This document shows, piece by piece, positions 55,694 to 60,508 of a stretch of 64,000 nucleotides of DNA. Made by a program: the position numbers and the translations under genes. The stretch's first letter is position 1; each line of letters begins with the position of its first letter. The DNA comes from an uncultured Actinomycetes bacterium (GTDB lineage: Bacteria; Actinomycetota; UBA4738; HRBIN12), in contig CAVZMG010000002.1 of the NCBI GenBank assembly GCA_963776425.1, positions 1,122,732 to 1,186,731 of the forward strand, read 5' to 3'. The notes under the pieces were generated by a model that saw only the letters and a program-made list of their open reading frames with translations, was not told the DNA's origin and searched no databases.

Positions 55694-56671
55694 CTAGTCT
55701 CGCTTCCGTTTCCGGGCGGCCGGGTCCTCGCCCTTGCGCGCCTGGACGAACGCGAACCCGAATCGGCCCTTGATGCAGAGATGGCCGTTCGTGACGTCGT
55801 TGTCCCACGGGGAGGTCACCTTGACGATCTCGTTGTCCTGGACGTGCAGCTCGAGCTCGCATCCCACGCCGCAATAGGGGCAGATCGTCTCAACGACCGT
55901 CTGCGCTTCCTCGTCCCATGAGCCATCCTCACGCTTGTCGTGCTCGCTCGTGAACATCAATGCGCCGGTCGGACACACCCCGATGCAGTTCCCGCAGTAG
56001 ACGCAGGCGGACTCGTTCAGCGGGACCGCGAACTCGGTCGAGATCCGAGCGTCGAACCCGCGACCGGCCACGGCGATCGCGAACGTGTTCTGTGCGTCGA
56101 CACCACAGGCTTCGACGCACTTGTAGCAGAGGATGCAACGCGAGTAGTCACGCACGTAGAGTTCGTTGTCGATCTTCACCGGCTGCGCGACGGACTCGGC
56201 GATCGTGGGGTCCTCCGGATCGTGATGATGCCCGGCCCATCGTTCGTCACGCTCCCCCGCGGGGAGGGATCCCATCCGCGCACCGAAACGATCGGGGTCC
56301 GTCCCGTACTCCCCCATCCACCGATGGACGTCGGCGCCGGTGAGCTCCGTGTCGACGCTCGACGCCAGGAACTCCATCACGAGCTTGCGTGAGTGCTTGA
56401 CGCGGTCCGTCTCCGTCTTCACTACCATGCCGTCCTCAGCCGGACGGCTGCACGCAGGGACGAGCGTGCGCGCACCCTCGACCTCGACGACGCAGACGCG
56501 ACAGGCGTTCACGGGCGTGAGGTTGTCGGCGAAACACAGCGTGGGGGTGTCGATGCCCTGGGCGCGGCATGCATCGAGGATCGTCGACCCGTCCGCCACC
56601 CGAACGGCCTGCCCGTCGACCTCGATGTCGAGCAGCCGCCGGGGTGGATCGAGCGGCACGGCCTGGCTCAT
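55694..56671 (-). CDS. formate dehydrogenase alpha, N-terminal Fe-S module (NuoG-like 2Fe-2S + 4Fe-4S clusters) as separate polypeptide
   Basis: 2Fe-2S ferredoxin N-terminus (CRVCVVEV), 4Fe-4S motifs (CILCYKCVEAC, CVYCGNCIGVCP), then CPYCGVGC...LCIKGRFGFAFV (the N-terminal cluster of FdhF-type Mo enzymes) before a stop. Confidence 0.8.
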   Translation of the reverse strand: MSQAVPLDPPRRLLDIEVDGQAVRVADGSTILDACRAQGIDTPTLCFADNLTPVNACRVCVVEVEGARTLVPACSRPAEDGMVVKTETDRVKHSRKLVMEFLASSVDTELTGADVHRWMGEYGTDPDRFGARMGSLPAGERDERWAGHHHDPEDPTIAESVAQPVKIDNELYVRDYSRCILCYKCVEACGVDAQNTFAIAVAGRGFDARISTEFAVPLNESACVYCGNCIGVCPTGALMFTSEHDKREDGSWDEEAQTVVETICPYCGVGCELELHVQDNEIVKVTSPWDNDVTNGHLCIKGRFGFAFVQARKGEDPAARKRKRD

Positions 56672-58567: not shown

Positions 58568-60508
58568 TCACTCGGCGTCTCGCTCCCCCGCGGGCACGGA
58601 CACCCGCGGCAGCCGGTCGATCCGCACCGCCGTCGCCTTGAACTCGGCGGTCCCAGATTTCGGGTCGTTCGCCTCGATCGTCAGCCGGTTCGTCTCGACC
58701 TGGTCGGGGAAGTGCAGCGTCATGAACGTCAGCCCCGGCCGCAGCCCGCTGTCGAGATGGACCGGCGCCTCGACCGATCCGCGGCGAGAGGTGACGCGCA
58801 CCCGCTCTCCCTCGACGACGCCGAGCGCCGCCGCGTCCTCCGGCGAGATCTCGATCGACTCGGGCCGACGGAGCGGCGACGTATACCCACCCGTCTGGAC
58901 GCCGGTGTTGTACGAGTCGAGCCGTCGGCCCGTCGTCAGCCGCAATGGGAACTCGGCATCGAGCGCGTCGACCGGCGGGTCGTCGATCACCACGCTGAAC
59001 GGCGCCTTCGTTCCTTGCGTCTGGGGATCGTCGAACGCCCATAGCCGTTCGTGGAGGAAGAGCGTGCCCGGATGGGACTCGTCGGGGCACGGCCACTGGA
59101 TCCCACCGAGCGCCTCCAGGCGTTCGTACGACATCCCCGCGTGCATCGGTGAGAGCGAGCGGAGCTCGTCCCATGCCCCATGGGCCGTGACCTCTCCCCA
59201 GTCGCGTCCGAGCCGCTTCGCCAGCTGCGCGATGATCCAGATGTCGTCCTTCGCGTTCCCGGGTGGATCGAGCGCCTTGCGGACCCGTTGCACCCGCCGC
59301 TCGCTGTTCGTCACGGTACCCTCGGCCTCCGCCCACGCGGCGGACGCCGGGAACACCACGTCGGCGAGCTCCGCGGTCTTCGTCATGAAGATGTCCTGCA
59401 CGATCAGACAATCGAGGTTCTCGAGCAGCGGCGTAGCGTGCGTCGCGTCGGCCTCGGAGCTGGCCGGGTTCTCGCCGATCACGTAGACCGCCCGGATGTC
59501 CCCGCGCTCCATCGCGTGGAACATCTGGGTGAGGTGCCAGCCGTACTTCGGCGTGATCGGGACACCCCAGGCCCGCTCGAACCGCTCGCGCGCGGCCGCG
59601 TCCTGCTCGATGTCCTGGAACCCCGGGAGCTTGTTGGGGATCGCGCCCATGTCGCCGCCGCCCTGCACGTTGTTCTGGCCGCGGAGCGGGTTCACGCCGC
59701 TGCCGTAGACCCCGACATGACCGGTCAGCAGGCTGAGGTTGATCAGGGCGAGCACGTTGTCGACGCCGTTGTGATGCTCGGTGATGCCGAGCGTCCAGCA
59801 GATCACCGCGCGGTCGGCCTTCGCATACGCGTGCGCGACCTCCTGGATGATCTCGGCCGGTACGCCCGTCACTTCCTCGCCGCGCTCGAGGGTCCAGTCC
59901 ATCACCGAGTCGCGATAGGCGGCGAACCCGGTCGTCGCACCTTCGATGAACGTGTGGTGCTGCAGGTCGTTCACGATGATCTCGCGCGCCATCGTGTTGG
60001 AGAGCGCGATGTCGGTGCCGACGTCGATCCCGAGCCACAGGTCGCCCCACTCCGCGGACTCCGTCCGACGTGGATCCACCACGATCATCTTCGCCCCGTT
60101 GTGGATGCCCTTCAGGACGTGGTGGAAGAAGATCGGATGCGCCGCGCGCGCGTTCGATCCCCACAACAGGACGAGATCGGTGTGCTCGATCTCCTCGTAT
60201 GAGCTTGTCCCGCCACCTGCTCCGAACACGGTCGCCAGACCGACGACGGAAGGAGCGTGTCAGGTGCGGTTGCAGCTGTCGATGTTGTTGCTGCGCAAGA
60301 CCTGGCGAGCGAACTTCTGTGCGACGAAGTTCATCTCGTTCGTGGCCTTGGAGCAACTGAACAGGCCGACCCCGTTGCCGCCGTTCCGCTCGGTGGCGGC
60401 GCGCAGCCCGTCCGCGGCCCGATCAAGGGCCTCGTCCCAGGTGGCGATGCGCAACACGCCGTTCTCGCGGACCATCGGCTCGGTGAGTCGGGTGAGCCCG
60501 TTCGTCAT
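58568..60508 (-). CDS. fdhA: formate dehydrogenase catalytic (Mo-bisPGD) subunit, selenoprotein; in-frame UGA (60260-60262) aligns with active-site Sec
   Basis: ATG with AAGGAGA SD. SNNIDSCNRT-[TGA]-HAPSVVGLATVFGAGGGTSSYEE aligns with E. coli FdhF CARV-U-HGPSVAGL. Two six-frame ORFs (60260..61003 and 58568..60229) share one frame and are separated only by that TGA. Confidence 0.8.
60215..60257 (-). ncRNA. candidate bacterial SECIS element downstream of the fdhA UGA
   Basis: mRNA UGA-CACGCUCCUUCCGUCGUCGGUCUGGCGACCGUG: hairpin CGGUC-UGGC-GACCG with GGUCUG motif (E. coli fdhF SECIS apex is GGUC/GGUCUG). Confidence 0.4.

Follow-up and report, generated by a model that had tools for sequence, protein, structure and literature searches.

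Can the alpha subunit of a formate dehydrogenase (FDH) be encoded by two separate genes, placed in reverse order on either side of a gene for another subunit of the same enzyme, or does such an arrangement betray a misassembled genome? The question is raised by a locus in a 64,000-nt stretch of DNA from an uncultured Actinomycetes bacterium (assembly GCA_963776425.1, contig CAVZMG010000002.1, positions 1,122,732 to 1,186,731 of the forward strand), which we refer to, over its full length, as the window. An earlier note on this DNA had described the gene order and had left open the choice between a split subunit and an assembly rearrangement. From the sequence of the locus and of its relatives, we concluded that it very probably encodes a cytoplasmic, three-subunit, selenocysteine (Sec)-containing Mo/W FDH of the NuoEFG-module type, as does the locus for FDH3 of Actinomycetospora chiangmaiensis.

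An alpha subunit divided between two genes

From position 60508 to position 55084, the minus strand carries four thematically related genes in head-to-tail arrangement. The first (58568..60508, minus strand; 646 codons, including a UGA at codon 83) encodes an FdhA-like catalytic subunit for a Mo/W-bis-pyranopterin guanine dinucleotide (Mo/W-bis-PGD) cofactor. This protein (alpha) begins MTNGLTRLTEPMVRENG and matches PF00384 and PF01568; its gene is preceded by a Shine-Dalgarno sequence, read from the sequence as AAAGGAGAG (60512..60520, minus strand), 4 nt before the ATG. The second gene (56668..58557, minus strand) encodes a diaphorase subunit of 629 amino acids (aa) that is a fusion of NuoE and NuoF (beta; PF01257, PF01512, SLBB, and PF10589). 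The third (55694..56671, minus strand) encodes a NuoG/HoxU-like Fe-S subunit of 325 aa (gamma), with a Fer2_4 [2Fe-2S] domain, two ferredoxin-type Fer4 motifs (both CxxCxxCxxxC), and, at its C terminus, a Molybdop_Fe4S4 domain, which in FDH alpha subunits carries the pterin-adjacent [4Fe-4S] cluster FS0. A mobA-like gene follows directly. A 10-nt spacer with GGGAG in it (TGA-gggagctgcg-GTG) lies between genes 1 and 2, and the NuoE-NuoF gene starts with GTG; genes 2 and 3 overlap by stop and start codon in the sequence ATGA, with GAAGGAG before it. The three FDH genes are thus translationally linked in a single operon that runs alpha, beta, gamma, with an fdhD-like gene upstream and the mobA-like gene downstream. 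This is the order that the earlier note had described: a Mo-cofactor half that comes first and has its own strong Shine-Dalgarno sequence, a 629-aa fusion second, and an Fe-S half that comes last and ends beyond CPYCGVGC.

The boundary between the two halves lies, as that note had also claimed, within a region that is normally contiguous. Residues 15 to 309 of the Fe-S protein align to residues 26 to 303 of Rhodobacter capsulatus FdsA (E value, 3e-44), and residues 7 to 630 of the Mo protein align to residues 308 to 931 of the same chain (E value, 4e-122). The Fdh-alpha equivalog model TIGR01591, which has 672 positions, is divided in the same way: positions 1 to 51 match residues 262 to 312 of the Fe-S protein (53.3 bits), and positions 52 to 672 match the Mo protein (654.4 bits). 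The whole-protein cutoff of this model is 666.25 bits, which the Mo protein by itself narrowly misses for want of those first 51 positions and which only the simple sum of both parts, 707.7 bits, exceeds. The Molybdop_Fe4S4 domain, PF04879, was absent from the catalytic subunit in the Pfam scan and is found at residues 258 to 310 of the Fe-S protein (55742..55900, minus strand; CPYCGVGC...LCIKGRF; E value, 4.9e-20), which terminates after ...LCIKGRFGFAFVQARKGEDPAARKRKRD, 15 residues past the domain. With the seam in this position, both the pterin-adjacent [4Fe-4S] cluster and the Lys conserved in CIKGR are therefore separated from the polypeptide that holds the Mo/W cofactor.

When one genome per species was scanned, at least 542 relatives were found. 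The layout was examined in the best 80 loci, 67 of which were long enough for gene order, seam, and TGA to be tested. In all 67, a Mo gene divided by the TGA was followed by the NuoE-NuoF gene and then by the Fe-S gene, all on a single strand. In these loci, the Fe-S reading frame ends only a few residues away from GRFGFxFVQNR. No relative had a contiguous fdsA at this locus, a synteny comparison that had been set beforehand as a test. In the databases, the Fe-S protein has more than 120 clusters at ≥77% identity, with domain lists that always end in PF04879 and with lengths of 314 to 345 aa, except for one 392-aa outlier without alignment statistics.

These data bear directly on the possibility of an assembly rearrangement, in which a contiguous fdsA would have been cut and its halves misplaced on either side of an fdsGB fusion. 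Only the unusual gene order itself speaks for this, together with the fact that the assembly is not free of errors (an apparent indel leaves a pfk gene frameshifted near position 50,670). Conversely, the same order, seam, and TGA recur in 67 loci that were assembled independently (from ENA, NCBI, and JGI, on contigs that include some of 0.5 to 10 Mb, the longest being a 10.2-Mb chromosome), and the more than 120 Fe-S protein clusters share the same end point. In addition, each piece in the window has its own start codon, Shine-Dalgarno sequence, and stop codon, the junctions are coupled, and the ratio of nonsynonymous to synonymous substitution rates (dN/dS), measured against the nearest relative, is ~0.09. 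We regard misassembly as virtually inconceivable, so that of the two possibilities raised by the earlier note, the split subunit stands and the rearrangement falls.

An in-frame UGA and a SECIS hairpin in the catalytic gene

One part of the earlier description had to be corrected. The Mo half had been taken to be an uninterrupted reading frame, and an in-frame TGA at codon 83 (60260..60262, minus strand) had been overlooked. This codon, in the context SCNRT-U-HAPSV, is at the catalytic Sec/Cys position. The translation of the gene has both active-site motifs, CNRT-U-HAPS, with the Sec/Cys-His pair, and PLRGQNNVQG, the conserved Arg motif. In 67 of 67 readable related loci the codon was TGA, in an identical eleven-residue peptide context; a Cys variant was found in none of these. 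UGA83 should be read through, because the peptide downstream is conserved in frame without an intervening start codon.

A hairpin that resembles the Sec insertion sequence (SECIS) of Escherichia coli fdhF lies immediately 3′ of the TGA (60219..60256, minus strand). Its lower helix is formed by positions 60256-60252 and 60223-60219, and its upper helix by positions 60247-60242 and 60236-60231. The apical loop, GGUCU (60241-60237), is invariant across an alignment of 65 sequences, 63 of them distinct, and in the upper helix (GUSGYC/GRCSAC) 99.2% of the cells in this alignment are paired. One pair, 18-30, is C-G in 46 rows, G-C in 17, and unpaired in none; both of its bases are synonymous third positions, one in a Val codon and one in an Ala codon. 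The covariation score of the hairpin was 0.195, compared with 0.106 for shuffled alignments (0 of 500 shuffles reached the observed value), and controls in which the position was slid all scored far lower. The sequence GGTCTG is located at +22 to +27 relative to the TGA, a spacing identical to that of E. coli fdhF; the fdhF sequence used for this comparison was found with 100% identity, under an fdhF annotation, in 5,419 of 5,426 E. coli genomes. Folding of the region 3′ of the TGA as a single sequence gave an unremarkable energy (z = 0.40), and the case for the SECIS therefore rests on the comparative data. An Rfam scan of the window gave no match at the gathering score.

Given a TGA at the active site and, behind it, an fdhF-type SECIS hairpin in which base changes are compensated, we concluded that the catalytic protein is a predicted selenoprotein. 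Viewed in isolation, an in-frame stop codon and a truncated alpha subunit could resemble decay, the genes being remnants of an inactivated fdsA. A decaying gene does not account for a TGA placed exactly at the catalytic Sec/Cys position with a conserved, covarying SECIS after it, nor for the detection of the proteins in a cultured relative. Moreover, dN/dS relative to the nearest relative was 0.08 to 0.09 for all three genes; relative to farther relatives it was 0.13 to 0.33, where dS is saturating. We concluded that all three genes are under purifying selection, and we give the pseudogene explanation essentially no credence.

Known relatives and the likely electron path

The architecture itself was published in 2020. 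Rohwerder et al. (Front Microbiol 11:691; PMC7176365, Table 1 and Supplementary Fig. S4) list FDH3 of A. chiangmaiensis DSM 45062 with an FdhA3 of 640 aa that has Sec at position 80 and is homologous to the metallopterin domain only, a NuoE- plus NuoF-like FdhB3 of 614 aa, and, where an N-terminal Fe-S domain would otherwise be, an FdhC3 of 316 aa that is described as “separate but homologous” (protein accessions for FDH3, WP_084681743.1, WP_018332443.1, and WP_018332444.1). According to the same source, all three proteins are present in the proteome, at levels 2- to 3-fold higher on 2-hydroxyisobutyrate, and formate removal by A. chiangmaiensis depends on selenite. The likeness to the window is close with respect to what is reported there: 640, 614, and 316 aa compared with 646, 629, and 325 aa, U80 compared with U83, and in both a metallopterin-only alpha subunit, a NuoE-NuoF beta subunit, a separate gamma subunit, and an fdhD gene. 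The hosts differ, one being a cultured A. chiangmaiensis strain and the other an uncultured actinomycetotal lineage. Hence, the locus in the window joins a known but little-studied and biochemically uncharacterized enzyme type. A literature search for “split” FDH alpha subunits or for Sec-containing FDHs with fused NuoE and NuoF found nothing beyond this study, whose text (PMC7176365) appears to make no mention of FS0 on gamma, of a missing His-ligated cluster, or of the breadth of the type. We did not find it stated in the literature that FS0 travels with gamma, that the His-ligated cluster is absent, that the type is widespread in soil phyla, or that every member examined has the TGA. The Sec-containing FDH of mycobacteria was set apart as a different enzyme, a membrane-type FDH-O/N of ~1064 aa.

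The operon follows the same module logic as FdsABG(D) of R. capsulatus and Cupriavidus necator (PDB 6TG9/6TGA, 9WXB, and 6VW7), in which a Mo-bis-PGD center is followed by FS0, the ferredoxin-type clusters, and a NuoF-type [4Fe-4S] cluster with flavin mononucleotide (FMN) that serves NAD+. However, FdsA is one polypeptide with an active-site Cys and a His-ligated [4Fe-4S] cluster, FdsG and FdsB are separate proteins, and the gene order is G-B-A, whereas in the window alpha is split and has Sec, no motif for a His-ligated cluster is present, NuoE and NuoF are fused, and the order is Mo, NuoEF, Fe-S. The tungsten enzyme FDH1 of Methylorubrum extorquens AM1 (Fdh1AB; PDB 7E5Z and 7VW6) shares the NuoE-NuoF fusion in its beta subunit (311 bits for 7e5z_B), and the Mo/W domain of its alpha subunit is homologous to the Mo protein of the window (421 bits); that alpha subunit is a single chain of 989 to 995 aa with the Fe-S domains attached and without Sec (PMC7176365, Supplementary Fig. 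S4).

Among solved structures, the best-scoring relatives of the Mo half are FdhF of the Thermoanaerobacter kivui hydrogen-dependent CO2 reductase (HDCR; PDB 7QV7) and E. coli FDH-H (PDB 1AA6). The Mo protein aligns to residues 62 to 714 of the former (502 bits) and to residues 61 to 688 of the latter (449 bits), scores that exceed those for FdsA (412 to 420 bits), and with E. coli fdhF the gene in the window shares both the UGA context and the position of the SECIS loop. Unlike the window protein, FdhF-type enzymes keep FS0 (residues 1 to 60) on the catalytic chain, and their partners are HycB or hydrogenase modules rather than NuoEF. A precedent for the Fe-S protein is provided by HoxFU of NAD+-reducing [NiFe] hydrogenases, in which HoxU is a free-standing subunit that resembles the N-terminal part of NuoG and is paired with a flavoprotein that combines a NuoE-like with a NuoF-like part. 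HoxU lacks a Molybdop_Fe4S4 domain, and its catalytic partner is a hydrogenase. The HoxU model scored 135 bits on the Fe-S protein, which also bears a resemblance to group A6 [FeFe] hydrogenases in their N-terminal part. For the beta subunit, the NCBI model nuoF_fam scored 440 bits, NuoE models also matched, and the matches among PDB chains were of the NuoF/HoxF/HydB/FdsB type; its domain content predicts a [2Fe-2S] cluster, a site for FMN and NADH, and an N3-type [4Fe-4S] cluster.

We infer that the three proteins form a complex that oxidizes formate with NAD+ as the acceptor, with an electron path modeled on FdsABG, Fdh1AB, and the architecture of complex I. Formate would be oxidized at the Sec-ligated Mo/W-bis-PGD center of the 646-aa alpha subunit. 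Electrons would then cross the alpha/gamma interface to the FS0 [4Fe-4S] cluster at the C terminus of the 325-aa Fe-S subunit, pass through the two ferredoxin-type [4Fe-4S] clusters of gamma and its [2Fe-2S] cluster, and reach the N3-type [4Fe-4S] cluster and the FMN of the NuoE-NuoF fusion, where NAD+ would be reduced.

Several observations weigh against this reading. The Fe-S protein lacks PF10588 and has no Cys between C74 and C179, so that the motif for the His-ligated [4Fe-4S] cluster (HxxxCxxCxxxxxC) is missing; the FdsA segment DHPLDCLTCAANGDCEL aligns to this Cys-free stretch, and an insert with an HHH run takes the place of the motif (56160-56450, minus strand; residues ~75 to 170 of the Fe-S protein). 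The electron path of FdsABG is therefore not transferable one to one, and the Fe-S protein should bind one [2Fe-2S] cluster and three [4Fe-4S] clusters. In complex I, an N1b-type [2Fe-2S] cluster is adjacent to N3, and for that reason the chain need not break where the His-ligated cluster is missing. The proposed orthology to FDH3 draws on agreement in architecture, in subunit lengths, and in the position of Sec. Within the 64-kb window, ARAGORN found no tRNA-Sec and indeed no tRNA at all, and Pfam scans, extended to ten further window open reading frames (ORFs) that matched genes of the division and cell wall (dcw) cluster, a PknB-like kinase, and others, found no sel genes. In favor of the reading, in a related locus from an Anaerolineaceae metagenome-assembled genome (MAG), L055, a tRNA-Sec gene (anticodon TCA; positions 442 to 538 of that locus) and a SelD-like gene (AIRS/AIRS_C; 626 to 1840) lie directly upstream of the FDH operon. 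Two further observations, on the linkage of the genes and on the affinity of the NuoF part, also count against our reading and are the starting points of rival explanations.

The first is that in one locus, L043 from a Chthonomonadaceae MAG, the Fe-S gene is alone, with no Mo or NuoEF gene within 8 kb. It could be taken to mean that the genes in the window are unrelated neighbors, an FdhF-like protein with some other partner next to a HoxFU-like NAD(P)H diaphorase that serves something else. The likeness of the Fe-S protein to HoxU and to the N-terminal region found in group A6 [FeFe] hydrogenases would fit, as would the 1.7 to 3.5 kb of other DNA between the Mo gene and NuoEF in nine Chloroflexota loci (L047, L050, L055, L059, L066, L067, L073, L075, and L077); in L075, this DNA contains an ORF for a sigma-70-like protein of the extracytoplasmic function type (2903-3634) and ORFs without a Pfam match. 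What decides against unrelated neighbors is that the Fe-S protein has at its C terminus the FS0 domain known from FDH alpha (positions 1 to 51 of TIGR01591), exactly the domain that the Mo protein misses, such that each protein on its own is expected to be incomplete. Moreover, all three genes were found together in 67 of the 68 loci in which this could be tested, L043 being the exception. We consider a chance neighborhood very improbable.

The second is that the NuoF part scores higher with HydB/HoxF-type chains (9bov_B, 8oh5_B, 7t2r_B, and 7q4v_B; 366 to 379 bits) than with FdsB (285 to 347 bits), some of these being bifurcating-type chains. The enzyme could accordingly be a CO2 reductase, since metal-dependent FDHs are generally reversible, or a flavin-based electron-bifurcating enzyme that uses NAD and ferredoxin, like the HylABC-FdhF2 and HydABC types. 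A bifurcating role is unlikely because the beta subunit has no extra ferredoxin-like C-terminal domain by Pfam, its matches reaching residue 620 of 629. The hosts are mostly aerobic soil heterotrophs, and the A. chiangmaiensis enzyme has been linked to formate removal in aerobic growth in the account of that strain (PMC7176365); both points also count against this alternative. We give a reductive or bifurcating function little weight, and we retain the reading of the locus as an NAD+-linked, Sec-containing FDH.

Distribution, origin, and surrounding genes

The related loci come from at least five phyla, including Actinomycetota, Acidobacteriota, Chloroflexota, Gemmatimonadota, and “Eisenbacteria.” The host lineages are mainly soil bacteria and aerobic heterotrophs. 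Within the class Actinomycetes, MAGs that carry the family include Geodermatophilaceae, Streptosporangiaceae, and Trebonia; the best match to the locus in the window is a soil MAG, and the cultured isolate Egibacter rhizosphaerae encodes the Fe-S protein too. Across loci L044 to L084, the three proteins are 58 to 76% identical between Actinomycetota and Acidobacteriota, Chloroflexota, or Gemmatimonadota. Such identity is high for phyla this distant and suggests that the whole operon has spread horizontally between phyla. In L043 (8001-9011 and 11298-12890), the lone Fe-S gene is set among glycosyltransferase and glycosidase genes, and a gene for a 56-kDa selenium-binding protein (SBP56) is located 2.3 kb from it, which may be a coincidence.

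How the order arose can be considered from the fused relatives. The nearest fused proteins, among representatives at 50% identity that are mostly metagenomic fragments, reach only 34 to 39% identity over the Fe-S part and no more than 44% over the Mo part; no close fused ancestor was found among these representatives. The term fission in the earlier note presumes a direction of evolution, and the higher scores of the Mo half with FdhF-type enzymes than with FdsA are to be weighed with it. The order Mo, NuoEF, Fe-S, in which both ends bear the same seam, is what would be left by a tandem duplication of an operon in which NuoEF precedes a fused Fe-S-Mo gene, followed by loss of both ends. Fission with gene transposition is equally possible, as is an origin in which a HoxFU-like module recruited an FdhF-like protein.

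A bolder proposal is that the split and the permutation are adaptive for Sec use, and that the invariant TGA across mainly aerobic soil phyla marks a distinct, Sec-obligate FDH family. We consider this unlikely. A catalytic gene that comes first and is relieved of an Fe-S region of ~300 aa would have its UGA at codon 83 of the first cistron. Failed Sec insertion would then waste only an 82-aa peptide, and a truncated NuoG-like fragment with its clusters in place, which could disrupt assembly with NuoEF, would not be released. Expression of the downstream subunits could depend on the selenium supply. An order reached by tandem duplication would be the operon-level counterpart of circular permutation in proteins.

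The preferred reading, a Sec-containing FDH of the FDH3 type, leaves current understanding standing, and it has a bearing on annotation. Gene callers routinely break the catalytic gene at the UGA into pieces of ~82 and ~560 aa, and the Fe-S subunit is labeled in databases only as “(2Fe-2S)-binding protein,” “YjgC,” or “HndD.” Because the UGA breaks the gene calls and the Fe-S labels are vague, a common soil FDH, and with it an implied selenium requirement, may be missed in metabolic reconstructions; soil Actinomycetota, Acidobacteriota, Chloroflexota, and Gemmatimonadota are the phyla where this happens easily. The placement of FS0, with its conserved Lys, and of the Mo/W cofactor on separate chains is a natural experiment that could aid the modular engineering of CO2-reducing or formate-oxidizing enzymes.

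Two cofactor-related genes flank the operon. The fdhD-like gene for a sulfurtransferase or maturation factor (62073..62909, minus strand; PF02634 FdhD-NarQ; E value, 2.7e-68) lies upstream, as it does relative to the Mo gene in most actinobacterial relatives. On the opposite (plus) strand between fdhD and the operon (60538-62174) are a 335-aa ORF without a Pfam match and a gene for an RDD-family membrane protein; this pair is also present in L002. Directly after the operon is the mobA-like gene for a molybdenum cofactor guanylyltransferase (55084..55692, minus strand; PF12804), whose start is uncertain. No ATG, GTG, or TTG was found upstream of its conserved GIVLAGGRSTRFGGDK motif (55572-55696, minus strand). 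At the junction with the Fe-S gene, the sequence CTAGTCTG, which holds the TAG stop codon of the Fe-S gene and then a CTG in the mobA frame, is kept in the window, in L005 to L008, and in L012. This suggests initiation at CTG, possibly at position 55692, or reinitiation after the Fe-S stop codon as the simpler reading. An alternative, a programmed frameshift leading out of the Fe-S gene and into mobA, was set aside, GAC-TAG being an implausible slippery site.

Elsewhere in the window, the phosphofructokinase gene mentioned above (start at 51372, minus strand) shifts frame at approximately 50,665 to 50,680, near ...LASFLMD, as a pseudogene or through an assembly indel; in L001 and L002, too, gene calling splits the PFK gene in two. 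The remainder of the window (7104-21419 and 45109-46902) contains a dcw cluster, with Mur ligases, FtsW, and FtsZ, and a gene for a PknB-like Ser/Thr kinase that carries PASTA repeats, which is an ordinary chromosomal context.

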